Shown in pieces: positions 2,083-26,427 of a DNA stretch of 32,000 bases. Each line of letters starts with the position of its first letter. Position 1 is the first letter of the stretch. The stretch lies in NCBI RefSeq assembly GCF_000009705.1, contig NC_003272.1, forward strand, positions 5,280,001 through 5,312,000. The letters run 5' to 3'. The notes beneath the pieces were generated by a model, which did no database searches, was not told the origin of the DNA, and was given only the letters and a program-made list of their open reading frames with translations. The translations under genes and the position numbers were made by a program. The DNA is from Nostoc sp. PCC 7120 = FACHB-418 (GTDB lineage Bacteria; Cyanobacteriota; Cyanobacteriia; Cyanobacteriales; Nostocaceae).

Positions 2083-2091
2083 TTCTCCACA

Positions 2092-2131
2092 ACACCCCTA
2101 CACCCCTACACCCTTAAACCCCTACACCCCT
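2092..2131. repeat. Five tandem octamer units of ACACCCCT (two degenerate: ACACCCTT, AAACCCCT)
   Basis: Read directly from the sequence: acacccct acacccct acaccctt aaacccct acacccct, followed by T7. The array lies between the convergent Uma2 and STAND genes. It supplies the last codons (KKGV) and the stop codon of the STAND ORF. Confidence 0.8.
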
Positions 2132-3600
2132 TTTTTTATAATTGTTGTGATATTACAAGCAATATAACCAGTTGCTAAAGGGGATTTATCATTTAAAAGT
2201 AATAAAATTTGTTGAAGATTCTGTACGAGATTTGCTCCATAAATCTGCCAGAGTTTTTCTTGTAGTTGATGCAAAATGCGATCGCCTACAATATCATCAC
2301 TACCCGGACGCAATAACCAATGGGTTCGCAGAACTTTAAAATCAGCGATATCTTGACTCTGCATCACCTGAATTATCTCTTGAGTTGCACGTTCTACTAA
2401 TTCATCAGTGACAATTTTCATCACCAGTGGTTGCAAGGTAAAAGCTGGTGCATCACTACAAATCCATTTTTCTAAAAGCGATCGCCTCTCCAAGCTGACA
2501 ATTGCTGCTAAAACTGTGGCAGGATCAAGAGAAATGAGTAAATTAGTTTGCAATCGGCTAAAAGAAATGGGTTGTTGCCAGATTGCTAACCAATAGAGAA
2601 TCTCTTGTTCTAAATCACTCAGTTGTTCAAATTGTTGTTGGAGGATAGCACGTAAGCGATCGCCAATTACTATCGTATTTTGACTCAGAAAAGCCGCAAT
2701 ATTCCCACCAAACACCGACTGAATCAATGGGGTGACAAGTTTTAGTGCTAAAGGATTACCGCGATAAAGTTGAATTAATGTTGATAGTCCGAGTTCCTTA
2801 CCTGTGAATCCTCTCCCTTGCAATAGTTCTACAGCCGCAGCTTTTGGTAATCCTGTTAACGTGAGACTGTGAACAGTTTTTGTATTCGATTCAATGATGT
2901 TGGGTTGCTGACGACTGGTGAGAAGAATACAACTTTGATGGCGATCGAGGCTTAATTGCTGGATGAATTGATGATAGTGCTTTTCTGACTCATCCAAACC
3001 ATCAAGTATTAATAAATACCGACGCTGTTGCAGATGGTGAATAAGTTTTGCTGTGTCTTGGGGAATATCATCAACAGGAGTTTCCTTAAAGGTGTGGAGA
3101 AGTCCATCTAACAGCGAAACCAGGGATGGTGCAGAATGAAGGGTTTTCCAGATTAAACCATCAAATTGTAACTGAAGGCGGTCAGCTAAAGCCAGTGCTA
3201 GAGCCGTTTTGCCAATGCCAGCAATCCCTGTAATAGTGATTAGTTTACAGCGATGGGCTAAAATCCATTGCTCTATCTGAGCTAATTCCTGAATGCGTCC
3301 ATAAAAGCTTTCAACATCAGGTGCTTCATCCCAGTCGAGGTATTGTGTAGAGAGTTCCTCTAAGTCTGTATGAGGGATTTCTGCAATACTTTGCCAATCG
3401 TTAATGCCAACAGCCTGACAGATAGCGATGAAAATTTCTTGTTGAATGCGATCGCCTTGCCAAAATCGCCGTAAAGTAGCTCTAGAAGTGTGAGCATCTT
3501 GCCACCAACGCGCCGTGCTGGTTTTCGTCCAGCCAAGACGTTTTCGCGCCTTGTCTACAATGGTCAGTCCAGTCGTTGATGCTTTGAGCGAGTTTGACAT
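2122..3600 (-). CDS. STAND NTPase: N-terminal HTH-like domain, NB-ARC (AP-ATPase) module and winged helix, with no C-terminal repeat sensor
   Basis: 492 aa. Walker A is GIAGIGKTALALA, Walker B is RRYLLILDGLDE, the sensor-I-like motif is ILLTSR, and the NB-ARC GxP motif is RGNPLALKL. The N-terminus (GWTKTSTARWWQDAHTSRATLRRFWQGDRIQQEIFIAICQAVGINDW) resembles the HTH module found at the front of many cyanobacterial STAND/WD40 proteins. Confidence 0.85.
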   Translation of the reverse strand: MSNSLKASTTGLTIVDKARKRLGWTKTSTARWWQDAHTSRATLRRFWQGDRIQQEIFIAICQAVGINDWQSIAEIPHTDLEELSTQYLDWDEAPDVESFYGRIQELAQIEQWILAHRCKLITITGIAGIGKTALALALADRLQLQFDGLIWKTLHSAPSLVSLLDGLLHTFKETPVDDIPQDTAKLIHHLQQRRYLLILDGLDESEKHYHQFIQQLSLDRHQSCILLTSRQQPNIIESNTKTVHSLTLTGLPKAAAVELLQGRGFTGKELGLSTLIQLYRGNPLALKLVTPLIQSVFGGNIAAFLSQNTIVIGDRLRAILQQQFEQLSDLEQEILYWLAIWQQPISFSRLQTNLLISLDPATVLAAIVSLERRSLLEKWICSDAPAFTLQPLVMKIVTDELVERATQEIIQVMQSQDIADFKVLRTHWLLRPGSDDIVGDRILHQLQEKLWQIYGANLVQNLQQILLLLNDKSPLATGYIACNITTIIKKGV

Positions 3601-3628
3601 ATATCTGTTAAGTGAGCAGATTGTCTTG
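3448..3628. repeat. Direct repeat copy 1 (STAND gene codons 1-51 plus 28 nt of leader)
   Basis: Aligns without indels to 4433-4613 (offset 985 bp), with 11 mismatches in 181 nt by hand alignment. The left boundary is a HIP1 site (GCGATCGC at 3448). Confidence 0.9.
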
Positions 3629-3692
3629 ATATTTTTCTACTAGATGCTGTGTTTTAACATCGCCTTGCCACAATCTGCTGTGTATCCTAGTT

Positions 3693-4055
3693 TTAGCCTG
3701 AATCACCATAAAAATCAGCCAGAATATCTCGAATTTCATTAGCACCAATATCTTCTCGATCAGATTTAGAATAGATTGTTAGCAACACAATATTCGTGGG
3801 TGAATCAACTTGATAAATCAGTCGGTATCCAGCACTTTTACCTTTTTGGATATTACTGTTGCGAACTCTCACCTTGTAAACAAAATATTCTTCCCCAAAT
3901 CCGCTAATTCTATCGCCTACAAAATCCCCTTGTTGTAACTGCTCGATAATCGGTTGGACATCAGAGCGAATCTTGCGGAATCTTTTTGAGAGTCTGTAAA
4001 GTTCTGCCTCAAACTCATCGGAGAAACGAATTGATACTGTGTTGTCACTCTGCAT
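3693..4055 (-). CDS. RelE/ParE-family type II toxin
   Basis: Has family-typical blocks (YRLIYQV, VLLTIYSKSDREDI) and small size. I prefer the ATG at 4055, which overlaps the antitoxin stop by 11 nt (ATGCAGAGTGA), over the track start at 4076. Confidence 0.85.
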   Translation of the reverse strand: MQSDNTVSIRFSDEFEAELYRLSKRFRKIRSDVQPIIEQLQQGDFVGDRISGFGEEYFVYKVRVRNSNIQKGKSAGYRLIYQVDSPTNIVLLTIYSKSDREDIGANEIRDILADFYGDSG

Positions 4056-4302
4056 CAATTCTGTCCCATAGCTCACTAATTGGTCTTGTTTGACCCATCT
4101 TTGCTTGCTGTAAGGCTCTCCTCAAGCTGGCTTTAATTTCCTCAACTGGTGTATCGTCTGGGTCAAACTCTTCTGTTTCTTCCTGTTCTGGAATTAACAC
4201 AATCACCCGTACTTGATCAGGGTAAGTTGTTCCCTGAATCGGCTGATCTAAAATTAAATTTCCTTGAGCATCTATTTTGCCAGTTACTTCGATCGCTTTC
4301 AT
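4045..4302 (-). CDS. Putative cognate antitoxin
   Basis: A small acidic protein directly upstream of the toxin and overlapping it. The C-terminal ...LRRALQQAKMGQTRPISELWDRID block is typical of cyanobacterial antitoxins. I prefer the ATG at 4302 (MKAIEVTGK...) over the GTG at 4359. Confidence 0.65.
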   Translation of the reverse strand: MKAIEVTGKIDAQGNLILDQPIQGTTYPDQVRVIVLIPEQEETEEFDPDDTPVEEIKASLRRALQQAKMGQTRPISELWDRIDAE

Positions 4303-4414
4303 CTTGGCTCTACCAGATTTTGTAGGAGATCCTAACACGCCCAAATACAAGCCACGCACCCTTCAATATCGGCAATCTATGCGATCGCCTCTTTATTCTA
4401 AAACCTGAATGCGA

Positions 4415-4585
4415 TCACACAGTGATGTGTAGGCGATCGCCCTGCCAAAATCGCCGTAAAGTAGCTCTAGAAGTGTGAGCATCTTGCCACCAACGCGCCG
4501 TACTAGTTTTCGTCCACCCAAGACGTTTTCGTACCTTATCTACAATTGTCAGTCCAGTTGTTGATGCTTTGAGCGAGTTTGACAT
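4415..4585 (-). pseudogene. Truncated duplicate of the STAND N-terminus (56 codons: MSNSLKASTTGLTIVDKVRKRLGWTKTSTARWWQDAHTSRATLRRFWQGDRLHITV*)
   Basis: Hand translation of the second repeat copy. It matches the first 51 residues of the 2122..3600 protein except A18V, then diverges and stops. It falls below the ORF-track length cut-off. Confidence 0.7.
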
Positions 4586-4613
4586 ATATCTGTTAACTGA
4601 GTAGATTGTCTCT
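4433..4613. repeat. Direct repeat copy 2 (see 3448-3628)
   Basis: About 94% identical to copy 1. It also begins at a HIP1 site (4433-4440). Confidence 0.9.
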
Positions 4614-4690
4614 ATTTTGCCTTAATATAACCTCCATTTGCGCTTGATAAATAGAGCAATAAATTAGCCATATGGGTCAATATAATGTTA

Positions 4691-5836
4691 CTACTCTTCT
4701 AATATTTCATCTTCGGCGTTAACATATTCTTCTTCTACATTGAACTCGACTTTACTCTGTAAAACTATTTCCTCTATTACATTTCTACCTCTATTTCGTT
4801 CTAAAATTGTTTCAAGGCGACTCATTAATTCTGGAATGTTTATTACTTCTTCTATTGCCATCATATATCTATTGACAATAGCTTTAACTTTATATCTGAT
4901 AGTTGCCTGTTCCTTAATTTTGTCCAATATCTTCTGAATTGGCTGCTCAGTTTTTACAACAAACGTAATTGGATACCTTTGAACCTTATCAATATCTAGA
5001 AAATACTTACCAGCATCTATAGTTTCTGTTACCTGAAAGAAACGACCAAGAGGTTTCATTACAAAGTCTATGCCGCCATCATTAGCATTTGTACGACCTG
5101 TCTTATAAAGTATTAAAGATTCAAGATTAATCTCGTCTAGAGACCAACCCCAATATATCTGTTGTTCACCATAATATTCTTTTAAAATCGCATAACTAAC
5201 AATTTCAAAAACTCTAGCGTCTATATTTGGTCGTAGTAGATTTCGGATAAATGCTAAAGCACGTTCGCTGTCTTGTTGTATAGCCATCATTTCTTGGCAA
5301 TAGTTTACAAAATCGTTGAATGCGTCCGTTCTAGCTTTCACATAAGCATCAATGATATCCTTAACAGCTTCAGCAATATTTACCTGAAAGTTATTAATTG
5401 TAAACCTTAGTAGATTTTCGTTGATCCAATATCGATTGGTTACTTGGTCTCTGATAATTGGAACATAAACAGATGTAGGAAAGTATTTTTTAAATTCTGC
5501 ATTTAAGCGGTTATTTAGTGCATGATTTTGAAGTTTTTTACCAAAAGGTAGCTCTCTCTGTCTCTGAAATAAAACAGAGTATTGAACACCTTGATAATCC
5601 TCATAACCATTGTTTAGATGAAACTCTTTGTTCAAGTAGTCTTCAACTAGAACATAAATTGCATAGTGGTTAGCGAATGATGCTCTTGATTTTGAGCCAC
5701 GGTTTGCAGCTTTAGTTTTAATATTTAAATACTGTAATAACTCACTATACTCTAATATTTGATTACCATAGCTAGGAAAATAAGAATTGAGAATTGCAAC
5801 TATATTTTGGGTAAACTCATGCTGTGGTATCGGCAT
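4691..5836 (-). CDS. Putative type II restriction endonuclease (Mrr-like PD-(D/E)xK core)
   Basis: 381 aa, translationally coupled to the upstream methyltransferase by a 20-nt overlap. The block VFEIVSYAILKEYYG...KTGRTNANDGGIDFVMKP...FFQVTE resembles the Mrr-type catalytic core (FE...G...DGGID...Q.x). Specificity is unknown. Confidence 0.6.
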   Translation of the reverse strand: MPIPQHEFTQNIVAILNSYFPSYGNQILEYSELLQYLNIKTKAANRGSKSRASFANHYAIYVLVEDYLNKEFHLNNGYEDYQGVQYSVLFQRQRELPFGKKLQNHALNNRLNAEFKKYFPTSVYVPIIRDQVTNRYWINENLLRFTINNFQVNIAEAVKDIIDAYVKARTDAFNDFVNYCQEMMAIQQDSERALAFIRNLLRPNIDARVFEIVSYAILKEYYGEQQIYWGWSLDEINLESLILYKTGRTNANDGGIDFVMKPLGRFFQVTETIDAGKYFLDIDKVQRYPITFVVKTEQPIQKILDKIKEQATIRYKVKAIVNRYMMAIEEVINIPELMSRLETILERNRGRNVIEEIVLQSKVEFNVEEEYVNAEDEILEE

Positions 5837-6704
5837 TAAAAAGGCTCTGCTGTAATGAATCTAAACTCTGATGACTTTTATTTCTGCTAATATGTGTTTT
5901 AATTGGTGGTGAAAGTTGTTCTCCCTTATATTCTTCCCAACCTAATACACGTCTTAAACCTATTTTCAAATATTCTTCTTGAGACTCTATACTAATTGAT
6001 TTTCTCCCTAAACGCTTTGCTACAGAAGCAACTGTAAACGTCCCCGCAAAGGGATCTAATACCAAACTATCTTCATTGCTACTGGACAAAATAATTCTTT
6101 CTATTAATGATTCTGGTTTCTGTGAAGGATGATTTTCATATTCTGGCATCCGATATCTCACACGAGAAAAATACCAAACATTGCCAGGCACTTTCTCTGT
6201 ATTGTATGGTGCTGGAACTGCCTTTCTATAATCAATTAATTTTCGTTGTGCGCCAGTTTTCGCTTCAATTTTGATTTCTTCTGAATTAAAAATATAATTA
6301 CTTTTGTTCTTAACACAATGAAGTATCGGTTCATACATAGAACCGAAATACTTAGTTGCTTGAACTCCAGAACTATCATAATGCCATACTATTCGACTCA
6401 GAATTGTTAATTTCTGCCGCAAATAAATATCAAAATATGGCATGGCTTGTGTACTGGTCATAACATAAATAGTTCCGTGAGATTTTAGCACCCGAATGCA
6501 CTCATCTAGCCATTTATAAGCCCAGTTTGCATATTCTTCCTCAGATTCCCATTTATCATGAAAGTTAGAGAAATGTTTTCCTATGTTGTACGGGGGGTCT
6601 ATAAAAATAAGATCTACAGATTCACTTGGAATGTTACTTGACAAAATATTTAAGGCATCTCCATGAAATAAGATGTGTGCTTCGTCTTCATATGTTTCAA
6701 ACAT
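5817..6704 (-). CDS. Beta-class N6-adenine/N4-cytosine DNA methyltransferase (N6_N4_Mtase family); the DPPY motif favours m6A
   Basis: Motif IV (IFIDPPYNIG) precedes motif I (VLDPFAGTFTVA), the beta-class order. The HPSQKPESLIERII block is also present. Confidence 0.9.
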   Translation of the reverse strand: MFETYEDEAHILFHGDALNILSSNIPSESVDLIFIDPPYNIGKHFSNFHDKWESEEEYANWAYKWLDECIRVLKSHGTIYVMTSTQAMPYFDIYLRQKLTILSRIVWHYDSSGVQATKYFGSMYEPILHCVKNKSNYIFNSEEIKIEAKTGAQRKLIDYRKAVPAPYNTEKVPGNVWYFSRVRYRMPEYENHPSQKPESLIERIILSSSNEDSLVLDPFAGTFTVASVAKRLGRKSISIESQEEYLKIGLRRVLGWEEYKGEQLSPPIKTHISRNKSHQSLDSLQQSLFNADTTA

Positions 6705-6954: not shown

Positions 6955-9417
6955 ATGACTCAAACTATAGAACGCCAGGCTGGTGGCTTATATATTCAAA
7001 CTCCTGAACAACAGCAAATTGCTTTCCCCCTGAAGCATACTGAAGTACAAGCCAAAATTGCGGGGAATATCTCACGGGTGGAAGTTACCCAAAGCTTTGA
7101 AAATCCCTTCACAACTACGTTAGAAGCTGTCTATATTTTCCCGTTACCGGATGAGGCGGCTGTTGATGATATGCTGATTCGGATTGGGGACAAGACTATT
7201 AAAGGTAGTGTTAAAAAACGCCAAGAAGCACAGCAAATCTACGAGCAAGCCAAGCAGCAAGGGCGCACCGCCGGACTGTTAGAACAAGAACGAGACAATA
7301 TTTTTACTCAATCCCTCGCCAACATTCAACCGGGTGAGCAAATTGATGTGATTATTCGCTACTCTGAAAGTTTGAAATTTACTGCGGGTAATTATGAGTT
7401 TGTTTTCCCGATGGTGGTTGCTCCGCGTTACATTCCAGGGATACCAATTGAGGGAAATGCAAGCGGTGTAGGTTCGGCGACTGCACCGATGACGCAAAAC
7501 CAAGATACAGATATAGTTCCTGATGGTTCACGGTTGAATGCACCTATCTTACCATCGGGTATGCGATCGCCCCACGATATTAATGTCACCATAGAAATCG
7601 ATGCGGGGGTTAAGGTGCAAAATATCCAGTCTCCTTCTCACCAAGTTCAGATAAGTTATGCAGAAAAGCAGGTGTTGGTGAAGTTGGCGGGTGGGGATAC
7701 TATTCCGAATAAAGACTTGATTTTACGTTATCAAGTAGCCGGCGAATCTACCCAAGCTACCGTACTCAGCCAAGCTGATGAAAGGGGTGGACATTTTGCA
7801 CTATATCTAATTCCTGCGATTCAATATCGTCAGGATCAAGTGGTTCCTAAAGATGTAGTGTTTCTCATCGATACTTCTGGTTCGCAGATGGGTGCGCCAC
7901 TAATGCAATGTCAGGAGTTGATGCGCCGCTTTATTAATGGACTTAATCCTGATGACACTTTTAGTATTGTTGATTTTTCAGATACGACTCGGCAACTATC
8001 GCCTGTTCCCCTCGCCAATAATGCCCAAAATCGCACAAGAGCCATCAATTATATTAATCAATTGAGTGCTAATGGCGGCACGGAAATGTTACGCGGGATT
8101 CGTGCTGTGTTGAATTTTCCCGTCACAGATCCTGGACGGTTGCGGAGTATTGTATTGTTGACGGATGGTTATATCGGCAATGAAAACCAAATCCTTGCTG
8201 AAGTGCAACAACATCTCAAGTCTGGAAACCGCCTTTATAGCTTTGGCGCGGGTAGTTCGGTGAATCGGTTTTTACTCAACCGCATTGCAGAATTAGGACG
8301 GGGGATAGCGCAGATAATTCGCCACGATGAACCAACGGATGAGATAGTCGATAAATTCTACCGTCAAATTAATAATCCTGTTTTGGCTAACATTAATTTG
8401 CAATGGGAAGGCGATGGCGATTCCCCAATTATTTATCCTTGCAACCCACCAGATTTGTTTGCGGAACAGCCGTTAGTTTTATTTGGTAAAAAGCCTGATG
8501 CGCGTGGGGGAAAACTGCACATTACGGGAATTGTTGCGGGTGGTACACATTATCAGCATACTTTTGACTTGAACTTTGAGGAAACTGGAAACCCCGCCAT
8601 CGCTCAACTTTGGGGACGTTACCGCATCAAGGAATTGATGAATCTTATGGTGAGTGGTGAAACTAAGTTAGGAGTGGAAGCGGTGACGGATACGGCTTTG
8701 ACTTATCAGATGTTGTCGCAGTATACAGCTTTTGTGGCGGTAAGTGATGATGTGCGAGTTGATTCGCTTCAAGAGACGGTTTCAGTGCAAGTACCTGTAG
8801 AAATGGCTGAAGGTATCAGCTATCTAGGTATTTTCGGGAGTGCTGTTAGTGCTGCTGCTCCCATCATGGCAAATATGGTATCTCCTGCGCCTGTTGTCCA
8901 ACGTAAACGAAGCCTACTATCTCCAGGCGCACCGGAAGCGGAGAGTTTTCTGTTTGAACCACCTCCAGTAATAGCACCAGGTGAAGAACTGGAAAGTCTA
9001 TCATTATACGATTTTTCCGGCGGCATTCTTGAGGAAGCACCACCACCAAAAATGTCGCGTTATGAAGAACAGTATCGTGCTTTCGATGAAAGTATTGAGG
9101 ATGAAGAACCTTTTTTAGCGGAAATTTCGCCTGTTGAGCTTCTAGAGGTTGTGAGTGTGACAGGATTGGATCAGCAGATGATTGCTCTTCTGACTCAGTA
9201 TTTAGAATCTCTCCCATTACATACAGCTTACAGTGGCGATTTAGTGTTTGAGTTGCAGATAAGTAAGGGACGAGTGAGACAGGTGTTGTTAGATGAGCAA
9301 GCTTCTACTTTCAAGGAACAGGAAGTAATTGATATTATCAGGCGATCGCTCATCTCCTGGCAACCCCCTCAAATACTCACAGCTACAGTTTTGCTAACGA
9401 TTCGAGTGCAAGCATAA
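6955..9417 (+). CDS. VIT domain plus von Willebrand factor A domain protein with a long C-terminal extension
   Basis: 820 aa. The N-terminal VIT-like region reads LKHTEVQAKIAGNISRVEVTQSFENPF...AVYIFPLP. The vWA MIDAS motif is VVFLIDTSGSQMG, followed by ...LLTDGYIGNE. A good SD (GAGGTAA) lies upstream. Confidence 0.9.
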   Translation: MTQTIERQAGGLYIQTPEQQQIAFPLKHTEVQAKIAGNISRVEVTQSFENPFTTTLEAVYIFPLPDEAAVDDMLIRIGDKTIKGSVKKRQEAQQIYEQAKQQGRTAGLLEQERDNIFTQSLANIQPGEQIDVIIRYSESLKFTAGNYEFVFPMVVAPRYIPGIPIEGNASGVGSATAPMTQNQDTDIVPDGSRLNAPILPSGMRSPHDINVTIEIDAGVKVQNIQSPSHQVQISYAEKQVLVKLAGGDTIPNKDLILRYQVAGESTQATVLSQADERGGHFALYLIPAIQYRQDQVVPKDVVFLIDTSGSQMGAPLMQCQELMRRFINGLNPDDTFSIVDFSDTTRQLSPVPLANNAQNRTRAINYINQLSANGGTEMLRGIRAVLNFPVTDPGRLRSIVLLTDGYIGNENQILAEVQQHLKSGNRLYSFGAGSSVNRFLLNRIAELGRGIAQIIRHDEPTDEIVDKFYRQINNPVLANINLQWEGDGDSPIIYPCNPPDLFAEQPLVLFGKKPDARGGKLHITGIVAGGTHYQHTFDLNFEETGNPAIAQLWGRYRIKELMNLMVSGETKLGVEAVTDTALTYQMLSQYTAFVAVSDDVRVDSLQETVSVQVPVEMAEGISYLGIFGSAVSAAAPIMANMVSPAPVVQRKRSLLSPGAPEAESFLFEPPPVIAPGEELESLSLYDFSGGILEEAPPPKMSRYEEQYRAFDESIEDEEPFLAEISPVELLEVVSVTGLDQQMIALLTQYLESLPLHTAYSGDLVFELQISKGRVRQVLLDEQASTFKEQEVIDIIRRSLISWQPPQILTATVLLTIRVQA

Positions 9418-9423: not shown

Positions 9424-9446
9424 ACCGGGTTTATCCCGGTTTTTTC
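9424..9446. terminator. Likely bidirectional terminator hairpin between the convergent vWA and dynamin-J genes
   Basis: accggg (9424-9429) pairs with cccggt (9435-9440) around a 5-nt loop. A T-run follows on the plus strand and an A/T-rich U-tract on the minus strand. Confidence 0.6.
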
Positions 9447-9453: not shown

Positions 9454-9469
9454 AAACCCCTACACCCCT
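9454..9469. repeat. Two units of the same octamer family (AAACCCCT ACACCCCT)
   Basis: Identical to the last two units at 2116-2131. The TAG stop of the dynamin-J ORF (cta, 9468-9470) overlaps the end of the repeat. Confidence 0.7.
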
Positions 9470-11696
9470 ATTTTTGATCAGACAATACTGTATAAGCTTC
9501 ATTAAACAAACGCATTTTTTCTTGCGCTTGTTTTTGCATCTGCGGTTGATTTACAAATAAATCTGGATGCCATTTTTTGACTAAAGTTTTATAAGTCTGT
9601 TTAATATCAGCAAAAGCTGCATCTTGTGGTAGTCCTAAAACCTTATAAGCATGAGCAATTTTATCTTTTTCTGTTTGGCTTTGGGGTGGTTTAGGTGCTT
9701 GCGTATTTTGATTTGGTTGCTGCTTACCATTCTGATAACCAGGAGAACGCATCTCTGCTTTCATCCGTGCTATTTCCTCATCCATTTCCCATTTGTGAAA
9801 CTTCGCTTCTAATTCGGCTGGATTAGGTGAGGGAGTAGTTTTTGGTGGTGGTGAATAAACTTGCTGCTTTGGCGGTTCAACTTTTTTCTCAGTAGTTTTG
9901 GCTGTATTTTCCTGTCGTGGTGGGTTAGGTGTAGCTGTAGATGGGCGAGTATATATGCGTTCTTGTTTTTGCCCAGATTTTTGTTGAGTTTGAGTAACTT
10001 GTGGCGTTTCTACATAAGGTTGATAGTTAGAAGAAATTTTAACTTTTGCTAACTCACCCAGTAGTTGATTAAAACCCTGTTGTAATAGTTGTAACTCTGC
10101 ACGTTTTTTAGTAATTTCTTGTGGTTCTTGAGTAACTTTAAAGCAAATTACTTTTTCAGCTTGACGTTCGTATTCAGCTAAGATTGATAAGCCTTGATGG
10201 CTAAGATGAGAAAAATACTCTTCCGTTGCAGCTATACAAAGTTTGGCAACTTGTTGATGATAGGATTCCTTCGCCAATTGGTCATCTTGCTGTTGTACAT
10301 TTTTGTTGAGTAAATAGGAAACACTACCAACCACAGCCGCACCAACAGGCCCACCTAATAGCCAACCGATACCACCACCGACAGCAATTGAACCTGGTTC
10401 GCTCCAAGTATCACTATGATCAGACTTAGGAGGTAGGGTAATAATTGGTTCACTAGGTAAAGGAATTAATAAATCTTCTGGTCGTTCTGCGTGGAAAAAT
10501 TCATAAGCTTGATAGAGCCACTTCACGACAGATATTTGTAACTCATTCAAGTCTTTTTTCAGATTGTTTATTTGCCAAGATTTGAAATTATTTTCTGCCA
10601 AAGCAACAGCAGCATTGGCTTGGTATTTGGCAAGTAAATTAGGTAGAGATAGCCAATCGTTTAATTCAGAAATACTAGCAGCAAAGCCTCTGCTAATTAA
10701 ATCTTGAGCCTTTTGTTTGATAGAAATTTTAGCATTGTATTTCTCATCAAAAGCATTAAACTCATTAGCAATAGGGTCAATTTTATGCTTTAATGATAAT
10801 TGAATTTGGGATGCGATCGCCTCCACTCTTGGCAACCTTACACTACCCCGATTTTGTTGTAAGATACCCACAACATTTTGCAAAGCTGTTTCAAACGCCG
10901 CTAAACCGCTACTACTAGCCGCCGCCACATCACCTTTTAACCTGGCGCGTAAAGCAGGTAAAGCATCAACCCGATACAAATTACTGAATCCTGCTGGTAA
11001 CTCAGCCCGGAAACTTTCTGCAACAAACCTGAGCCGACTTTGTACCTGTTGTTGTTCCTCCGGCTCCAGTAAATTAATAAAATTAGCAACAAAAATAACT
11101 GTTTTAATACCCCTATCCAATAACCAATCACGCAAATTTTCCCGTTCACCCAAAGTCATCAACTTGCGCGCATCCAGTAATTGCACCACCAAATCTGCAC
11201 TCAATAATTGCTCCTTAACTAAATTATCTTGCTCCTCCCGATCATTAGTTCCTGGTAAATCAACAAACTCAACACCAGTTTCTAAAAACGGATGGGGACA
11301 AAAAACCTCTACAGATGCCACATCTCGGCGCATCTGTCTATTACCATCAAGAATAGCAAACTGCTGTAAAACATCGGTACCACTGCGATAGACTTCTGTA
11401 CCGTCTACCAACATGATACGCGATCGCACACTAGAACCATACTTAACCGTAATAGCCGCCCCTGTAGTGGGAATCAAATCAATTGGTAAAGCACGACTAC
11501 CCAAAACCGCATTTAACAAAGTAGACTTACCATGATTAAAAGGGCCAAAAACCGCAATCCGAAAATTAGGATTCTCTAAATAACCACATATAGACACCAA
11601 ATCCTGATGTAACCGAGAAGTCCGTTCCAACCCCAACAAACCAGACGCAGACTTCAACACCTCAATCAAACTCCCATAACCTGCATACTGCTCCAT
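9468..11696 (-). CDS. Dynamin-like GTPase with a glycine-rich membrane paddle, a Pro/Gln-rich linker and a C-terminal DnaJ (J) domain
   Basis: 742 aa. G1 is FGPFNHGKSTLLNA and G2/G3 is VDLPGTND. The paddle reads GSIAVGGGIGWLLGGPVGAAVVGSV. The C-terminal J domain is YKVLGLPQDAAFADIKQTYKTLVKKWHPDLF...FNEAYTVLSD, with HPD encoded at 9561-9569. Confidence 0.85.
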   Translation of the reverse strand: MEQYAGYGSLIEVLKSASGLLGLERTSRLHQDLVSICGYLENPNFRIAVFGPFNHGKSTLLNAVLGSRALPIDLIPTTGAAITVKYGSSVRSRIMLVDGTEVYRSGTDVLQQFAILDGNRQMRRDVASVEVFCPHPFLETGVEFVDLPGTNDREEQDNLVKEQLLSADLVVQLLDARKLMTLGERENLRDWLLDRGIKTVIFVANFINLLEPEEQQQVQSRLRFVAESFRAELPAGFSNLYRVDALPALRARLKGDVAAASSSGLAAFETALQNVVGILQQNRGSVRLPRVEAIASQIQLSLKHKIDPIANEFNAFDEKYNAKISIKQKAQDLISRGFAASISELNDWLSLPNLLAKYQANAAVALAENNFKSWQINNLKKDLNELQISVVKWLYQAYEFFHAERPEDLLIPLPSEPIITLPPKSDHSDTWSEPGSIAVGGGIGWLLGGPVGAAVVGSVSYLLNKNVQQQDDQLAKESYHQQVAKLCIAATEEYFSHLSHQGLSILAEYERQAEKVICFKVTQEPQEITKKRAELQLLQQGFNQLLGELAKVKISSNYQPYVETPQVTQTQQKSGQKQERIYTRPSTATPNPPRQENTAKTTEKKVEPPKQQVYSPPPKTTPSPNPAELEAKFHKWEMDEEIARMKAEMRSPGYQNGKQQPNQNTQAPKPPQSQTEKDKIAHAYKVLGLPQDAAFADIKQTYKTLVKKWHPDLFVNQPQMQKQAQEKMRLFNEAYTVLSDQK

Positions 11697-11810
11697 ACAA
11701 CCCCTCTCCTCAATAAAAACAAAGAGAGAAGAAAAAACTCCCCTCTCCTCTTACATCTCTGCGCCCCTCTGCGCCAACCTCAGCGCCCCTCCGCGTTAAA
11801 AAAACCTCAT

Positions 11811-13892
11811 TTAGCCATAATAAGCCAACAAATTACTATAAGCAGCCTCAATATTTTGCAACTGAGCAATCACATCCTCCTGCAAACTCTTAAACCTTTT
11901 CAACTCACCTTCCCGATTAATTTCCCGTGTTTCCTTCTGCTTCAGTAAATTATCTAACTCCGACTTCCGAGCAGTAATATCGTCATTAATCCGTTTACTC
12001 ACTTCCCTTTCATAAGCATCAAAACATTCCTTCACCGCATCATATACAGTTTGCGATTGTTCATGTGCTACCTGTGGGAGATATTTAACTAACTCCTTCT
12101 TCGCAGTTTTCACCAACTCCTTCCGCGCTTGGTCTGCTTGTAAAAAGCCTACACCCAAACCAAGTAAAGCAAATCCGATAGGGCCGAGAAATACCCCTGT
12201 AACGGCCGTAATGATTCCCCCAATCCCAACCACAGTAAAGTAATTTAACAAAATATTTTTCCAATCAAAGCCAGCACCAGCTAACGCCACACCCGCCAAA
12301 TTTCCGCGAGACAAAGATAACAATCCCATCGCCCATTTTGCCCAACTAGGAGATTTATCATCTTCTGTGGTGGTTGTAGGATTAACCGTAACTTTTTGTC
12401 CCGTAAGTTTTTCGGTTATTTGGTCTGTAACTTGGCTGTAAGATGCACCATATTGGAATGCACTGCGGGAAAGTTCTTTAAAAGCCACATTGATATCTTT
12501 TTCGGCTGTCAAAGTCCAAGCCGCAAATTTATCAGTAATGTATTGCTCAAAGGCTTTTTGTAGTGCAGTATTAAACGCTTCCCGCTTACCATTACTCAGA
12601 AAATCTAACAGATTTAACTCTGGTTGATAGCGTAAAAAATCAGTTTCAAAAGTATTACCCAAATTTAAAACATAGCTGCGGAAAGATTCTGAGACTTTGC
12701 GCGCTTGGGTATCCCTAGTAGTGAAAATTTCCTTTTGAAATTGGTCACGAATATGATTGAGTTTGGTAAACTCCGGTTCAACAGAATCAATCCGTTTCTT
12801 TAATTCATCCACATCTTGGTCTAGTAATGGTAAGCGTCTCCCAATTGCTTCGCGGGTATGGTTGACAGCTTGTCTTGCTAATGTTCTGGCTTGTCGTAGT
12901 TCTGCGATCGCCCGTTCTCTGGTAAGAAATGTATTTAGAGAACCCATAAACTCAGGAAAGCCGGTTCCAGTTAAATCCGCTTGGGAATCCTTCAACCGTC
13001 GCCGCAGTGCTTGAATTGATGACAGTTCAAACACCCTCTCATCATAAATATTTTGACCATCTACATAACAATATTCTGTCAAGTTCGCCTTAAATACTTG
13101 TCGTAGTCTATCTTCTGACGCTTTTAACTCATCTACATCATCAGGATCAATCAATGATTCCTTCACCTGATCCCAAGCATTAATTAAAAAGAAAACAGAT
13201 AACCCCCGACCTTTAATGTAGTTTTCTAAATAACGACGCTCCCCTAAAGTACAAGGTTGGGAAGCTCGCATAACAAATAAAATTGCATGACAGTTATTGA
13301 CATATCCCAAAGATAATTCGTTTCGTGCTTCCGTGTCATTTAACCCAGGACTATCAACAATTTCAATCCCCTTTTCTAGTAAAGTCAGAGGATATTCTAC
13401 AACTGCATAATCAACGTCAGGAAAAGCTTGTTTTTTCTCTTGTTCTAACTTCTTTGCTTCCGCCGGATCAATAGTGTATTTATATTTAAAGCTTTGAAAA
13501 TCTAAGGTTTGTGGGCTTTTGCCATCATTAAAGTGAATTGTAACTTTTTTTTCTGCCCCGTAGCGTAACACTGTTAATACTGCTGTGCAAGGATTAACAT
13601 CACTAGGTAATAAATTTTCTCCAATCAAAGCATTAAGAAATGTACTCTTACCCCGCTTCATATCGCCTAAAACCAATAAGCGAAATACTCCTTTTTTCAG
13701 GTTCTTACTTGCTACAGAAATATCTTCTAAATCTCTTTCTAAACTTAACTTACCTGATGATGTGTCCCCAGCTAATTCTGCTTGATTAATTGTGTCAGAT
13801 AATTTTTGTAAACAGACCGCAATCTTAGAACGCACTTGAGCAACACGTTCTAAATCCTGAATAAATTTATCAGTTGCTACTTGATTAACCAC
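11811..13892 (-). CDS. Bacterial dynamin-like protein (BDLP), an apparent ortholog of the Nostoc punctiforme BDLP
   Basis: 693 aa with a GTG start. G1 is LVLGDMKRGKSTFLNALIG, followed by DSPGLND. The hydrophobic paddle reads ILLNYFTVVGIGGIITAVTGVFLGPIGFALLGLGVGF. From memory, the length and N-terminus (MVNQVATD.FIQDLERVAQ) match the crystallised N. punctiforme BDLP. Confidence 0.95.
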   Translation of the reverse strand: MVNQVATDKFIQDLERVAQVRSKIAVCLQKLSDTINQAELAGDTSSGKLSLERDLEDISVASKNLKKGVFRLLVLGDMKRGKSTFLNALIGENLLPSDVNPCTAVLTVLRYGAEKKVTIHFNDGKSPQTLDFQSFKYKYTIDPAEAKKLEQEKKQAFPDVDYAVVEYPLTLLEKGIEIVDSPGLNDTEARNELSLGYVNNCHAILFVMRASQPCTLGERRYLENYIKGRGLSVFFLINAWDQVKESLIDPDDVDELKASEDRLRQVFKANLTEYCYVDGQNIYDERVFELSSIQALRRRLKDSQADLTGTGFPEFMGSLNTFLTRERAIAELRQARTLARQAVNHTREAIGRRLPLLDQDVDELKKRIDSVEPEFTKLNHIRDQFQKEIFTTRDTQARKVSESFRSYVLNLGNTFETDFLRYQPELNLLDFLSNGKREAFNTALQKAFEQYITDKFAAWTLTAEKDINVAFKELSRSAFQYGASYSQVTDQITEKLTGQKVTVNPTTTTEDDKSPSWAKWAMGLLSLSRGNLAGVALAGAGFDWKNILLNYFTVVGIGGIITAVTGVFLGPIGFALLGLGVGFLQADQARKELVKTAKKELVKYLPQVAHEQSQTVYDAVKECFDAYEREVSKRINDDITARKSELDNLLKQKETREINREGELKRFKSLQEDVIAQLQNIEAAYSNLLAYYG

Positions 13893-13915
13893 AATAATTA
13901 CACCTTAGTTAAGAA

Positions 13916-14230
13916 TTATTTTTTTCGAGATACAAAAAATAGCTGGTAAGATACCCACCCCAGAGTTGCAATAATAATCAACCCGGCTAAAGCCGAAGCA
14001 ATTCTGACTGCAACTAACGCCGCTACACCCAAAGCAAACAACTTTGCACCCAGAATTGCTTTTTTGATCCAGGGTTTTTGTTCTGGTTGGTGCTTGACTG
14101 TTTTATGAAAAGTAACATCGTTGGGAGAAATTTGTTGTTCTATTTCCCGCAACCGCAATTCTACTTCCTTCTCTCGTAGTATCCGTTCCCGTTGCTCAAG
14201 TTCCTGATGGCGATCGTTTGGAAATGTCAT
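13916..14230 (-). CDS. Small membrane protein (charged coiled-coil N-terminus, two predicted TM helices), first gene of the BDLP operon
   Basis: 104 aa. The sequence reads ELEQRERILREKEVELRLREIEQQ, then AILGAKLFALGVAALVAVRIASALAGLIIIATLGWVSYQLFF. Its stop lies 23 nt from the BDLP start on the same strand. Confidence 0.6.
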   Translation of the reverse strand: MTFPNDRHQELEQRERILREKEVELRLREIEQQISPNDVTFHKTVKHQPEQKPWIKKAILGAKLFALGVAALVAVRIASALAGLIIIATLGWVSYQLFFVSRKK

Positions 14231-14620: not shown

Positions 14621-15595
14621 ATGGATATCAAAAATGGCTTTATAGGAACTGTTGGCAACACACCACTAATTCGTTTAAACAGTTTTAGTGAAGAAACAGG
14701 ATGTGAAATTCTCGCTAAAGCAGAATTTCTCAATCCTGGTGGTTCAGTCAAAGACCGCGCCGCACTTTACATCATCCAAGATGCAGAAGAAAAAGGACTC
14801 CTCAAAGCAGGCGGAACTGTTGTAGAAGGAACTGCTGGTAATACTGGCATTGGATTAGCGCATATTTGCAATGCCAAAGGCTACAAATGCCTGATAATTA
14901 TTCCTAACACCCAATCACAGGAAAAGATTGATGCACTCACAGCTTTGGGTGCAGAAGTCCGTCCCGTTCCTGCTGTACCTTACAAAGACCCAAACAATTA
15001 CGTCAAACTATCTGGGAGAATTGCTGCGGAGTTAGACAACGCAATTTGGGCAAATCAGTTTGATAATTTAGCTAACCGCCGCGCTCATTACGAGACTACC
15101 GGCCCAGAAATCTGGACACAAACCGATGGTAAAGTTGATGCTTGGGTAGCTTCCACTGGTACTGGTGGCACATTTGCCGGTGTAGCCATGTATCTGAAAA
15201 ACCAAAATCCCGCCATTAAATGCGTAGTAGCTGACCCACTAGGTAGCGGACTATATAGTTACATCAAAACTGGTGACATCAAGATAGAAGGAAATTCTAT
15301 CACCGAAGGTATTGGTAACAGCCGCGTCACAGCTAATATGGAAGGCGCACCAACTGATGATGCCATCCAAATAGATGACCATGAAGCTTTGCGGGTAGTT
15401 TACCAACTGTTGCGGAAAGATGGTTTATTCATGGGTGGTTCGACAGGTATTAATGTTGCCGGTGCTGTAGCTTTGGCGAAGCAATTGGGGCCTGGTCACA
15501 GGATTGTCACCATATTATGTGATAGTGGTTCCCGCTACCAATCGCGTATATTCAACCGTGATTGGCTTGCATCCAAAGGACTAACGGTAGATTAG
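14621..15595 (+). CDS. cysK: Cysteine synthase A / O-acetylserine sulfhydrylase (PLP-dependent, fold type II)
   Basis: 324 aa. The PLP-lysine motif is NPGGSVKDR, with further blocks GNTGIGLA and TGTGGT. The cysK/cysM/CBS-like subfamily cannot be assigned without a search. Confidence 0.8.
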   Translation: MDIKNGFIGTVGNTPLIRLNSFSEETGCEILAKAEFLNPGGSVKDRAALYIIQDAEEKGLLKAGGTVVEGTAGNTGIGLAHICNAKGYKCLIIIPNTQSQEKIDALTALGAEVRPVPAVPYKDPNNYVKLSGRIAAELDNAIWANQFDNLANRRAHYETTGPEIWTQTDGKVDAWVASTGTGGTFAGVAMYLKNQNPAIKCVVADPLGSGLYSYIKTGDIKIEGNSITEGIGNSRVTANMEGAPTDDAIQIDDHEALRVVYQLLRKDGLFMGGSTGINVAGAVALAKQLGPGHRIVTILCDSGSRYQSRIFNRDWLASKGLTVD

Positions 15596-18268: not shown

Positions 18269-19699
18269 TCAATGTGCGCCTGTCTTCTGAATCACAACCT
18301 TAAAGGTTTGTAACAAGATTCTCCAATCTAGCCAGATAGACCAATTTTCGATATAGTCCATATCTAGTTTGAATGCGTCATCAAAATTATCAATGTTGGA
18401 ACGTCCAGAAACCTGCCACAAACCAGTGATACCAGGAAGAACTTCTTGGCGAATAAAATGATTATTCTGAAACTTCTGAACATCGCGCATCGGTAAAGGA
18501 CGAGGCCCGACAAGGCTCATTTCTCCCAAGAACACATTAAATAATTGTGGCAATTCATCCAAACTATAGCGGCGTAAGAATTTACCAACTGTTGTGATGC
18601 GAGGGTCGTCTTTCATTTTGAAAAACACACCATCTTTCATTTCGTTTTTAGCTTCTAGAGAGGCTTGAATTTTTTCCGCATTTGTCACCATTGTCCGGAA
18701 TTTCCAAATCTTGAAGGTTTGGCGATGTAAGCCAACACGTTCTTGTTTGAAGAATACCGGCCCAGGAGAATCAAACTTGATTATCAAAGCGATCGCCACA
18801 TATACGGGTAAAAGCAAGATGATGAGGATGGAAGAAAAGCAAAGATCAAAAAATCGCTTCATCCAAAAATCACCGCCAACAATTAAGGGTGCGGGGATTG
18901 TGGGATAAAAGACCTCTCCAATCATATCAAACGTAGATTTAGGGAGAGAAAATTCACTCATTGTTGGCAATAAGCGCAAGGTAATGCCAGCATTGTAGAA
19001 ATACCAGCAAAGGAACAACCGATTTTTGATGGTATCCCAAGCAATAAAAACTTCATCTACATTTTGAGCGCGAAGATACGCAAAGGTTCTTTCTCTATTA
19101 GCTAAATCTAAACATTTGGAGTTAGCATAACCTTGAATTGCAAAGTAATTCTCTCGTTCCAGCAGCTTTACATGATAAGGCTCTTTTTCTTCATCATCAG
19201 CAATAATAAAAATCCGGTGACGTACTGCGCCTTTTTGACGGATTGAATTAGTAAAGAAGTTAAATAAATAACGAAAAGAGCAAATGAAGCTGATGGACAA
19301 TAACCAATGCACTAGAAAAGTTGCATAGGGAATATAAGTATTTTCTCCATAGAGAACCTCTACAAATAACAACAATACAGATGATAAAGAAATTGCTTTA
19401 ACTATACCTGCATAGTTCCGCCTGTGAATACCTGCTTTATAAAGCCCTGTTGTTTGAAATATAGCGATCGCCAAGCTCAAATTGAGCAGCATAAACGATA
19501 TATTTTGTATCGAAAATAATTCAATGGAATTACTGGACAAAACTGCTAAATTCCATGCAGAGGCTATAAATACTGCATCCAAAAATACCAGAATTACCAC
19601 ACGCATTAATCTGATAAACAATCCCCTCTGGATTCTGGGACTGTTAGCAGAGCGTAAGTCTGGTTTTAAACTTTCTATAGAAATGTTACCAGAAACCAT
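18269..19699 (-). CDS. Polyprenyl-phosphate hexose-1-phosphate transferase (WbaP/EpsB-type priming bacterial sugar transferase)
   Basis: 476 aa. It has N-terminal TM helices and a C-terminal bacterial sugar transferase domain (FKIWKFRTM, SLDELPQLFNVFLGEMSLVGPRP). Confidence 0.9.
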   Translation of the reverse strand: MVSGNISIESLKPDLRSANSPRIQRGLFIRLMRVVILVFLDAVFIASAWNLAVLSSNSIELFSIQNISFMLLNLSLAIAIFQTTGLYKAGIHRRNYAGIVKAISLSSVLLLFVEVLYGENTYIPYATFLVHWLLSISFICSFRYLFNFFTNSIRQKGAVRHRIFIIADDEEKEPYHVKLLERENYFAIQGYANSKCLDLANRERTFAYLRAQNVDEVFIAWDTIKNRLFLCWYFYNAGITLRLLPTMSEFSLPKSTFDMIGEVFYPTIPAPLIVGGDFWMKRFFDLCFSSILIILLLPVYVAIALIIKFDSPGPVFFKQERVGLHRQTFKIWKFRTMVTNAEKIQASLEAKNEMKDGVFFKMKDDPRITTVGKFLRRYSLDELPQLFNVFLGEMSLVGPRPLPMRDVQKFQNNHFIRQEVLPGITGLWQVSGRSNIDNFDDAFKLDMDYIENWSIWLDWRILLQTFKVVIQKTGAH

Positions 19700-19952
19700 A
19701 AGTATATTATTCCTCCATATTACAGCAAAATTGACAACAAAAAATATCAGCTATGATTTTATGGTTTATGCAAAATCAATCTTCCTAAAAGTTTTAATGA
19801 CATCCGTTTATTCTTTGAAAAAATCAAATACCTATGTTTTTACAGTCACTTATTCTGGAAAATATTGTCATCACCAGTATTTAAAAACACAAGTTTGAAT
19901 CAACTTGACGTATTGATTACACTAACCTCAAAGTCTGACAAATAATGCCCAC

Positions 19953-20726
19953 CTATTTTGATTGACTAGACAAACTCCAAATTTCTCGTAAGAAGAGAGT
20001 GCCTAAAAACCACGGCTCAAGTAAGTAACGTCTCCACAATCTAGTTGGTTCGGTCAACAACCTATACAACCATTCCAGCCCCATTCTCCCCATCCAACGA
20101 GGTGGCGTAGGTATCGCTCCTGCCACATAGTCTAGGCAAGCTCCACTGGTCAAAATAGCATTGGGTTGAATACGTTCCAAATTTTGGGAAATCCAATGCT
20201 CTTGTCGTGGCATCCCCATCCCCACCATTAACACATGGGGTTTGTAATCATTGATGGCCTTAATAACAGTCAGATTTTCTTCACTCTCTTCACTAGTATC
20301 AAAGTAGCCATGAGAGCAAGCAATTTTTAACCCAGGAAACTTTCGGCGCAAAATAACTGCCCCTTGTTCAGCAACTCCTGGTTTTGAACCTAGATAGAAA
20401 ATACGCCAACTTTTATTGGCTGCTTCCTCCATGAGAGGCCATACCCAGTCGGCATAGGTTACTCTCTGTTCCCTCTTCATAGGAAAACCTAGAAGCTTGC
20501 CAATAAAAACTATAGGCATACTATCAATATGGATGTATTCGGCCTTAGCATAAAAGGCTTGCATTTCTAAGTCCTTGTGAAATAGATAAAGACTATGCAG
20601 GTTGTGATTAGCGATAATCCATTTTTTTCCCTGCTCAATAGACTCTCCAATTAAACAATTTAATTCAGGGATAGAAAGAGCATCTACGCTAACCCCAAGA
20701 AGTTTATAAGAAGGCCGCTTCTTCAT
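19953..20726 (-). CDS. WecB/TagA/CpsF family glycosyltransferase
   Basis: 257 aa with family blocks: GVSVDALS, FYLGSKPGVAE, LMVGMGMPRQEHW and LEWLYRLLTEP.RLWRRY. Confidence 0.9.
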   Translation of the reverse strand: MKKRPSYKLLGVSVDALSIPELNCLIGESIEQGKKWIIANHNLHSLYLFHKDLEMQAFYAKAEYIHIDSMPIVFIGKLLGFPMKREQRVTYADWVWPLMEEAANKSWRIFYLGSKPGVAEQGAVILRRKFPGLKIACSHGYFDTSEESEENLTVIKAINDYKPHVLMVGMGMPRQEHWISQNLERIQPNAILTSGACLDYVAGAIPTPPRWMGRMGLEWLYRLLTEPTRLWRRYLLEPWFLGTLFLREIWSLSSQSK

Positions 20727-20886
20727 GACTTGTAACTATTTTGTAAATCTAAGAGTCTGGAACACACAAAAACTAAGGTTTTTATAATTAATTCGTTAAA
20801 TCTATATTATCATTTACCTACGTAAATACACTAAGATTTTTGGTTAAATCTTTTGTGAAGAGAGGGAAACATTGTTAAGATTCTAT

Positions 20887-22026: not shown

Positions 22027-22147
22027 AAGAATATTTAAGATATTGTTTCTGATTTAAGGTGGGTATTTTTTTAAAATTTATTCAAGTATTTACCAAAAGT
22101 AATGTCTCCTATTCAACTACATTTGATAAATACCGCTACAAGAATAA

Positions 22148-23041: not shown

Positions 23042-23119
23042 CTCATTTACCTCATATAATTTTTTTGAAAACAATCTTTAAAAATAGAAAACTTTTCGTT
23101 ATTTTTGCAGATTTGATTT

Positions 23120-24136: not shown

Positions 24137-24171
24137 AATAATTACTTGTAAAATTTATGATCCAGTAAAAA

Positions 24172-25425: not shown

Positions 25426-25466
25426 TGCAATATTTTTTCATTAGGTTTTTGTAAATATTTCAGTAA

Positions 25467-26402: not shown

Positions 26403-26427
26403 AATTTGTTCTCCTAAATTTATTTGA

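Follow-up and report, generated by a model that had tools for sequence, protein, structure and literature searches.

The bacterial dynamin-like protein BDLP1 of Nostoc punctiforme (PDB 2J68/2J69/2W6D) is the founding structural model of bacterial dynamins and a reference for the mechanism of mitofusins, and both its role in vivo and its partners are still being sought. Its GTPase activity is not stimulated by self-assembly, which hints at a partner, and it belongs to a cyanobacterial clade, 'Tandem B', whose members are encoded upstream of dynamins of a 'Tandem A' clade, with hetero-oligomerisation proposed (Jilly et al., 2018; PMC5827413). The gene next to that of BDLP1 (UniProt B2IZD2) encodes a C-terminal DnaJ-like domain, for which either DnaK binding or a role in assembly was proposed (Liu, Noel & Low, 2018; PMC6104087). 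More generally, bacterial dynamin pairs act as heterotypic complexes, and in Cj-DLP1/2 the heterotypic coupling depends on an additional domain carried by a random-coil linker (PMC6104087). Here we describe a locus of this type in a window of 32,000 nucleotides from Nostoc sp. PCC 7120 (Anabaena PCC 7120; contig NC_003272.1, positions 5,280,001 to 5,312,000, forward strand; all coordinates below count from the start of this stretch). Three minus-strand genes follow one another there: a small gene for a putative membrane protein (S), a BDLP1-type dynamin gene (B) and a gene for a 'Tandem A'-type dynamin-like protein extended by a J-protein module (A::J). We put at about 0.5 the probability that S-B-A::J encodes a heterotypic B/A membrane-remodelling dynamin pair together with a membrane partner and a DnaK-recruiting J module.

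Compared with what has been described, B corresponds to BDLP1 and A::J to its DnaJ-tailed neighbour, in the published tandem order with B upstream of A. The novelty claimed by the original prediction therefore shrinks, since the tandem pair and the DnaJ-like C-terminus of the neighbour of BDLP1 were already in print (PMC5827413; PMC6104087). As far as we found, three things are undescribed: the S partner, a J gene that is fused in some lineages and separate in others with a common helix, and an atypical G4 motif in A. The literature on BDLP1 and B2IZD2 mentions neither S, the free-standing J variants, the linker helix nor the atypical G4, and S goes unmentioned in all the literature found. The locus would thus supply candidate partners for BDLP1 in the form of a co-encoded hairpin protein, a dynamin with an unusual pocket, and a J module that occurs both fused and separate, in a genetically tractable host (Anabaena PCC 7120).

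Other paired dynamins resemble the locus in part. Cj-DLP1/Cj-DLP2 (PDB 5OWV/5OXF) are also encoded by two unlike dynamin genes side by side, one partner having a linker-borne domain, and both are structural matches of A (Foldseek E about 1e-12). They differ, at a sequence identity of about 15%, in that the extra domain of Cj-DLP1 is an assembly domain and not a J domain, and in the third gene of their operon, which encodes an HcpA-like beta-lactamase where the present locus has the hairpin protein S. Paired or fused dynamins involved in membrane stress, division or repair are likewise found in mycobacterial iniBAC, in Streptomyces DynA/DynB and in B. subtilis DynA. IniA closely resembles A in structure (E 2.4e-14), and a small non-dynamin gene (IniB) lies upstream of the IniA/IniC pair; IniB is Gly/Ala-rich and unrelated to S, and we know of no J domain in any of these systems. 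For the J module the likeness to auxilin/GAK-Hsc70 and to E. coli DjlA, in which a C-terminal, flexibly tethered J domain brings Hsp70 to a membrane-bound assembly, is one of function. Auxilin acts on the clathrin coat rather than on dynamin, and DjlA has a transmembrane helix as its anchor. Outside the J domain neither shows homology to A::J, which is without clathrin- or PTEN-like domains.

The three reading frames were recovered at the coordinates that the original prediction had given them, with the same gaps of 23 nt and 114 nt: S at 13916-14230 (104 aa, ATG start), B at 11811-13892 (693 aa, GTG start) and A::J at 9468-11696 (742 aa, ATG start). Their products are identical to the deposited proteins BAB76114, BAB76113 and BAB76112, respectively, and identical entries to all three carry the source names Anabaena sp. 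FACHB-709 and other Nostocaceae. No NCBIfam model scores above its own cut-off for S, B or A::J. B matches PDB 2J68 (BDLP) over residues 1-692 with 1361.7 bits, as well as Pfam Dynamin_N (7.7e-34) and, over the full model, the BDLP helical domain PF21808 (1e-184). It contains the motifs G1 GDMKRGKS, G3 DSPG and G4 NAWD and a hydrophobic paddle at aa 546-586 (nt 12135-12257), in agreement with its earlier description as a canonical BDLP. Judged by this end-to-end match, B is an orthologue of the crystallised N. punctiforme BDLP1 ('Tandem B' type), the protein from which GTP hydrolysis and lipid tubulation are known in the literature.

We compared about 160 related loci. Relatives of A were found in 569 species genomes, the best 80 of which, together with a Scytonema locus (L005), make up a Nostocales set of 81 loci; other orders were covered by exact-protein look-ups and by scanning metagenomes with a Pseudanabaenales orthologue of A as the seed. 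Homology, domain content, gene order and the fused or separate state of the J gene could be observed directly in these loci. B lies upstream of A in 81/81 Nostocales loci, and the same order recurs in many loci from other cyanobacteria. A J domain was detected in 79/81 of the Nostocales loci, the two exceptions (L038, L061) being cut short soon after the A core. S accompanies B and A::J in 70 of the 74 Nostocales loci with enough upstream sequence to be evaluated, and S-B-A without the J domain occurs in other cyanobacteria. The three-part arrangement is no accident of this genome. In the metagenome scan, S-B-A::J was the architecture of 23 loci, S-B-A or S-B-B'-A without J that of 10, and B-A with neither S nor J that of 5; A stood alone in 12 loci, S preceded A in the absence of B in 2 (L117, L119), and in 6 B-A was followed by a separate small J gene (the automated count for this last class is 5, because L132, whose A gene is cut by the contig end, was filtered). 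Three J-fused dynamin loci with 78-83% identity to Nostoc come from metagenome-assembled genomes labelled Acetobacteraceae (L054), Chroococcales (L057) and Leptolyngbyaceae (L022), and these are probably mis-binned Nostocales contigs.

A::J matches Pfam Dynamin_N (1e-26) and DnaJ (1.1e-13), and the dynamin G domain proposed for the third protein was found at aa 45-262 (10911-11564, minus strand). Its G1 GPFNHGKS (nt 11523-11546), G2 PTTG and G3 DLPGT are all invariant in 91 orthologues, and a profile-profile comparison matches it to the B type of G domain with a probability of 99.8. The G4 region departs from this pattern: it reads V203-A-N205-F-I-N208-L-L210 (N-F-I-N at nt 11073-11084), with no acidic residue and the Asp absent, and N205, F206, N208 and L209 are invariant in the same 91 orthologues. 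The usual G4 motif is (N/T)KxD; when A is aligned, in three independent ways, with BDLP (NAWD), MFN2 (NRWD) and Cj-DLP1 (TKAD), it has a gap, Asn or Ile opposite their Asp. The G4 Asp of GTPases reads the guanine base; because it is missing, the specificity of A for its nucleotide may be altered or relaxed, and A may serve as a regulatory, non-canonical partner.

The AlphaFold2 model of A::J built on the 91-sequence alignment reached a pLDDT of 75.6 (an earlier model from 30 close homologues, with pLDDT 63 and pTM 0.39, was too poor for use). In a Foldseek search with this model BDLP 2J69 came out on top (E 6.8e-17), followed by IniA and Cj-DLP1/2 at the E values given above and by the mitofusins MFN1/2. 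Since these are its best structural matches, A is, on the evidence of the model, a genuine dynamin of the BDLP/mitofusin class with a helical-bundle neck/trunk fold. Global TM-scores are low (0.25-0.33) on account of hinges and the disordered tail, and Pfam PF21808 was not detected in A::J. Where BDLP has its paddle, A has a Gly-rich, moderately hydrophobic segment (aa 426-475; 10272-10421, minus strand; glycines concentrated at aa 434-461) in which G444 and G452 are invariant and which is a putative membrane-binding tip. Of the glycine-zipper paddle claimed here, the glycine-rich character and the position hold, while the hydropathy lies below the transmembrane threshold and AlphaFold2 confidence in the segment is low.

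The dynamin core is followed by a linker rich in Pro, Gln, Lys and Thr (aa 556-680; 9657-10031, minus strand). The disordered Pro/Gln-rich linker of about 115 aa in the original prediction is correct as to the low complexity, except that a conserved helix is embedded in it at aa 626-649 (9750-9821, minus strand; PAELEAKFHKWEMDEEIARMKAEM). This segment is predicted to be helical in AlphaFold2 models, and A631, F633, W636, E637, E641, I642, K646 and M649 are invariant among 30 Nostocales sequences. The C-terminal J domain itself (aa 681-742; 9471-9656, minus strand; HPD at aa 710-712, nt 9561-9569) matches PF00226 with 51.5 bits against a cut-off of 27.8, and it also matches J domains in the PDB. 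Helix II, with the sequence KQTYKTLVKKW, is basic, AlphaFold2 models it and helix III with confidence, and H710, P711, D712, K699 and K707 are invariant across the 30 sequences, K703 and K708 being variable. These features uphold the claim of a bona fide J domain, and the domain looks functional. With a C-terminal J domain, an HPD loop and a basic helix II, the tail fits class C/III of the J-domain proteins. DnaJ proper (class A/B) was rejected: the J domain is the sole matching part and is C-terminal, and NCBIfam DnaJ_bact reaches 47.6 bits against a cut-off of 377.

The distribution of the J domain among relatives of A is uneven. It is present in all 120 closest homologues of A::J, and nearly all the named ones are Nostocales. 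When 1.84 billion representative proteins were searched exhaustively with a profile, a single representative of the J-tailed, full-length A was returned (60% identity); all orthologues at a greater distance (35-54% identity) have 540-600 aa and end at query residue 512-563, mostly 540-550. Likewise, the best 120 matches to the Pseudanabaenales A orthologue contain only Dynamin_N and MMR_HSR1 and no J domain, the named ones coming from Leptolyngbya, Leptothoe, Acaryochloris, Oculatella and similar genera. Because the close homologues are all J-tailed and the distant ones end before the tail, the J fusion appears specific to Nostocales.

In six loci found in the metagenome scan (L116, L124, L132, L134, L137, L142) a separate J protein of 116-151 aa is encoded directly 3' of A, and in L134 and L137 its gene overlaps the A stop codon by 4 nt. 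A further case, from a separate look-up, is L171, whose genes run S(127)-B(691)-B'(693)-X(179)-A(558)-J(119), where numbers are lengths in aa and X is a protein described below; its J gene, directly downstream of A, is database-called, encodes 119 aa and matches PF00226. The free-standing J proteins retain the HPD and begin with KFR.LEID.E.Q.LKQ or F.AWEIE.EL..LK.QM, which is the motif of the Nostocales linker helix, AELEAKFHKWEMDEEIARMKAEM. Its general form is KF..WE[IM][DE]EE[IL]..[LM]K..M, and some of the free-standing proteins have it twice. Genes with the motif are located at L116 7852-8202, L124 4003-4368, L134 7608-8030 and L171 8763-9122. Pfam holds no family for the linker, the conserved helix or protein X. 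Since the free-standing J proteins and the Nostocales linker have the same helix motif, the tail of A::J is best explained as a downstream J-protein gene that became fused onto A via a low-complexity spacer. This alternation of fused and separate genes, of the Rosetta-stone type, is the strongest evidence that we have, at the level of sequence, for a J protein working with the A dynamin, and it gives a genomic rationale for Hsp70 in the cycle of a prokaryotic dynamin.

Hydropathy analysis supports the earlier view of S as a charged helix followed by a membrane hairpin. The charged N-terminal helix spans aa 7-35 (nt 14126-14212; RHQELEQRERILREKEVELRLREIEQQIS) and would be cytoplasmic. A hydrophobic stretch of 47 residues (aa 55-101, nt 13928-14068), divided in the middle by a conserved Arg, is read as a tight membrane hairpin of two helices, at the end of which stands a conserved W..YKLF. 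A hidden Markov model (HMM) of the family finds a homologue in the same position in more than 100 loci, with E values from 1e-19 to 1e-59, and S lies directly 5' of B, at a distance of about 16 nt, in about 90% of the loci that carry B. This arrangement extends to cyanobacteria outside the Nostocales whose A is without a J domain; S is present there in most loci that contain B and is rare beside A in the absence of B (2/14 evaluable loci). Besides the two loci of this kind from the metagenome scan, an exact-protein look-up yielded one more (L087).

Some loci have other sequences in this region. In a few Nostoc genomes tandem heptamer-type repeat DNA takes the place of S, namely in L025 (3952-4692), L043 (3731-4706), L072 (3733-4086) and L143 (3534-4214), and the repeats translate as FVQNTSP/FVHNTSP. 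An unrelated open reading frame (ORF) of 116-156 aa lies beside them in L025, L043 and L143 (156 aa in L025 and L043). L020 has no ORF where S would sit. Several clusters outside the Nostocales encode protein X, of about 180 aa, which has several hydrophobic helices and starts with MRNWPxWIPNP; the gene is located between B' and A or 5' of B (L171 6336-6875, L170 5453-6001, L124 1217-1753, L117 5367-5891, L130 5106-5642, L134 3320-3847). Neither the window nor the Nostocales loci examined contain it.

The original prediction treated the three genes as a single tight operon; the spacing is tight between S and B only. The S-B spacer (13893-13915, minus strand) is 23 nt long here and has a median of 16 nt across 102 loci, with 12-19 nt in 76/102. 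As this spacing is tight and conserved, S and B are almost certainly co-expressed, and the distance fits co-transcription and coupled translation. The gap of 114 nt between B and A (11697-11810, minus strand) belongs to a class that ranges from 4 to 2274 nt across loci, with a median of about 157 nt, and an operon that takes in A::J is no more than putative. The statement that the last gene alone is followed by a terminator hairpin was not confirmed: the B-A gap contains a terminator-like hairpin (11721-11750, minus strand) with a 13-bp stem followed by the U-rich tail CUUUGUUUUUAUUG. At -15.0 kcal/mol it is more stable than the bidirectional hairpin terminator 3' of A::J (9424-9440, both strands; -9.4 kcal/mol), which has a 6-bp stem with 5 G-C pairs and T-runs on both strands and is common to the convergent neighbouring gene. 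The hairpin in the gap may be a partial terminator or an attenuator. It has a counterpart in the closest relatives (L006, L007, L013, L022) and is not family-wide; among 113 loci with a gap of 40-600 nt, 31 have a terminator-like hairpin in it. Folding z-scores for the whole regions are not distinctive (-0.88 for the B-A gap, -0.62 for the 3' end), and only the local hairpins are worth noting. The gap is also very G-rich on the coding strand, the GC skew of 11001-12000 being -0.41 on the plus strand, and two copies of a direct repeat, GAGGGGCGC, lie 5' of the terminator-like hairpin.

The reading that we favour, a B/A dynamin pair with a membrane partner and a DnaK-recruiting module, is supported by the orthology of B with BDLP1, the BDLP/mitofusin fold of A and the conserved B-A order, and by the retention of S about 16 nt from B, the intact J domain and the fused and separate J genes. 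A second genomic link between dynamins and Hsp70 comes from a separate cyanobacterial dynamin 'chaperone clade' with a DnaK gene downstream (PMC5827413). The physical interactions, the DnaK client and the physiological role set out here are our deductions from this evidence. S would be translated from the mRNA that also encodes B, its synthesis probably keeping pace with that of B, and as a membrane-embedded receptor, nucleator or curvature wedge it would mark or anchor the target membrane (cytoplasmic or thylakoid) or nucleate B/A assembly there. The J module, consisting of the helix, the low-complexity spacer and the J domain, would be attached to the C-terminus of A by a long flexible tether, recruit ATP-bound DnaK to the assembled dynamin coat and trigger ATP hydrolysis, upon which DnaK would clamp a nearby client. 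That client could be the dynamin polymer, which would be taken apart and recycled once the nucleotide is hydrolysed, or membrane proteins damaged at a site of repair. As a whole the locus would serve the nucleotide-driven tethering, fusion or repair of membranes, and two ancient machineries, dynamin-type GTPases and Hsp70, would then be linked in the maintenance of the thylakoid or plasma membrane. The parallel with auxilin/Hsc70 is a reasonable analogy. A more specific version, in which S nucleates a B/A polymer on the plasma or thylakoid membrane, the J domain, docked by the helix at aa 626-649, loads DnaK to strip and recycle it, and A, for want of the G4 Asp, is a regulatory partner of divergent nucleotide specificity, would make the locus a self-contained coat-and-uncoat machine and a bacterial counterpart of auxilin/Hsc70 uncoating; we regard it as rather unlikely.

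Several observations weigh against our reading. Four evaluable Nostocales loci (L020, L025, L043, L072) and some B-A clusters of other groups have no S, and some lineages have the unrelated membrane protein X instead; S is therefore dispensable or replaceable. The loss of the G4 Asp makes nucleotide use by A uncertain. The B-A gap is long, variable and often provided with a terminator-like hairpin, as in this window, so A::J may be attenuated and expressed separately or at a lower level. The majority of A-type orthologues are without any J domain, and therefore recruitment of DnaK cannot be essential to the core mechanism. Finally, no functional study was found in the literature on S, B and A::J of PCC 7120 or on their N. 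punctiforme counterparts.

Other explanations differ in which part of the locus they set apart. The J-like domain might not act via Hsp70 at all and instead serve for assembly or dimerisation by docking A onto B, as the linker-borne extra domain does in the heterotypic coupling of Cj-DLP1/2; such a role has already been proposed for N. punctiforme B2IZD2 by Liu, Noel & Low (PMC6104087). Pure docking, however, would not need the residues that contact Hsp70, and the fused forms never vary at the HPD, K699 or K707, the HPD being kept in the free-standing J proteins as well. The helix at aa 626-649 is the better candidate for docking, and we consider an assembly role for the J domain unlikely. Conversely, A::J could be chiefly a membrane-tethered, DjlA-like co-chaperone that delivers DnaK for quality control, its nucleotide cycle being degenerate. 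The absence of an acidic residue in the G4 region would agree with this, as would a weak NCBIfam DjlA-like match to the tail (aa 636-742, 37 bits, under the cut-off) and the existence of membrane-associated DnaK paralogues in cyanobacteria (reference cited in PMC9950537). Against it, the intact and invariant G1, G2 and G3 of the 91 orthologues argue for a working nucleotide switch, and the majority of orthologues have the same G domain and no J domain. We regard a mere co-chaperone as improbable. It could also be S that does not belong, as an unrelated envelope protein of the DUF3040/SCO2097 type encoded beside a functional unit of B and A only. S of the window passes the Pfam DUF3040 (PF11239) threshold marginally (27.9 bits, gathering cut-off 24.7), and many of its close homologues have a precomputed match to this family while others do not; the actinobacterial DUF3040 proteins SCO2097, Rv2169c and Cgl2168 are tied in the literature to cell-wall synthesis and not to dynamins, and there are the B-A clusters that lack S. 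On the other side, NCBIfam SCO2097_fam gives S 28.2 bits against a cut-off of 110, so that the equivalog score is not reached, and a member of the S family from outside the Nostocales has no match to DUF3040 at E<=1. The neighbours of S are dynamin genes rather than cell-division or cell-wall genes, with no cell-division cluster nearby. S keeps the same position and spacing in more than 100 loci across divergent cyanobacteria, and in L087, L117 and L119 it stands directly upstream of A without B. We judge an unrelated S to be unlikely, to the same degree as a J domain that serves only for assembly.

The surroundings of the locus bring in a further possibility, that it is a dynamin-type anti-phage system like Eleos/LeoABC or B. 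subtilis DynA and that its position in a defence island reflects this. A cluster of defence-type genes with a low GC content of 0.33-0.34 does lie at 1498-6704. It comprises a Uma2-family endonuclease (1498-2082, plus strand), a NB-ARC/STAND NTPase (2122-3600, minus strand), a ParE/RelE-like toxin ORF (3693-4076), which overlaps a 104-aa ORF without a family match (4045-4359) and may form a toxin-antitoxin pair with it, and a restriction-modification pair of type II (4691-6704) made up of a restriction enzyme (4691-5836) and an N6/N4 methyltransferase (5817-6704). The restriction-modification pair ends 2.76 kb from the dynamin unit, and this pair, the ParE/RelE-like ORF and the STAND NTPase gene lie 2.8-7 kb away. 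The Scytonema locus has GmrSD and Cas6 genes upstream, and DynA contributes to phage defence (PMC12998192). Eleos (LeoABC) is likewise based on dynamin-like GTPases, and its PADLOC models match both dynamins (LeoA 54-58 bits, LeoBC 41-44 bits). These matches are weak (28-58 bits overall for the Leo profiles) and partly local, covering for example only residues 41-73 of A, which is what general dynamin homology would give, and Eleos has a different gene composition. Of the defence-island argument in the original prediction, the short distance to the restriction-modification genes is correct, but their adjacency is not conserved: among the 81 related loci the restriction enzyme adjoins the unit in none and the methylase is represented by two weak matches only. 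The link to a defence island was rejected on this ground, and membership in Eleos/LeoABC on the same ground together with the weakness of the PADLOC matches. No association of S-B-A::J with defence islands is conserved. Practically all the Nostocales genomes sampled have the unit, A has relatives in hundreds of species genomes, and a cysteine-synthase gene is often adjacent, a pattern of the core genome and not of a patchy, mobile defence island. We hold a dedicated anti-phage role to be about as improbable as that of a mere co-chaperone; by analogy with DynA, the unit may help passively in surviving phage-induced membrane damage.

Both flanks of S-B-A::J are formed by genes on the opposite strand. 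On the 3' side a gene for an 820-aa protein with a VIT and a von Willebrand A domain (VIT-vWA; 6955-9417, plus strand) converges on the unit; it adjoins the unit in 4/81 related loci, at 64-88% identity, with two more matches that are weak (26-29%). On the 5' side a gene for a cysteine-synthase-like, pyridoxal-phosphate (PLP) enzyme (14621-15595, plus strand) diverges from it and is found upstream of the unit in 42/81 related loci. Among the related loci compared, no fourth gene is kept universally beside the three. In 57 related loci a gene for a DUF305-like lipoprotein of about 234 aa with repeated HHQGAV motifs lies 3' of A::J on the same strand (for example at L050 9446-10174); this gene is absent from the window. 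Further along, at 18269-31017 (minus strand), the window contains a long polysaccharide-biosynthesis cluster of low GC content, all on one strand, with genes for a sugar transferase, a WecG/TagA-type enzyme, several GT1/GT2/GT4 glycosyltransferases, a PhyH-family dioxygenase and an O-antigen ligase/polymerase of the Wzy type.

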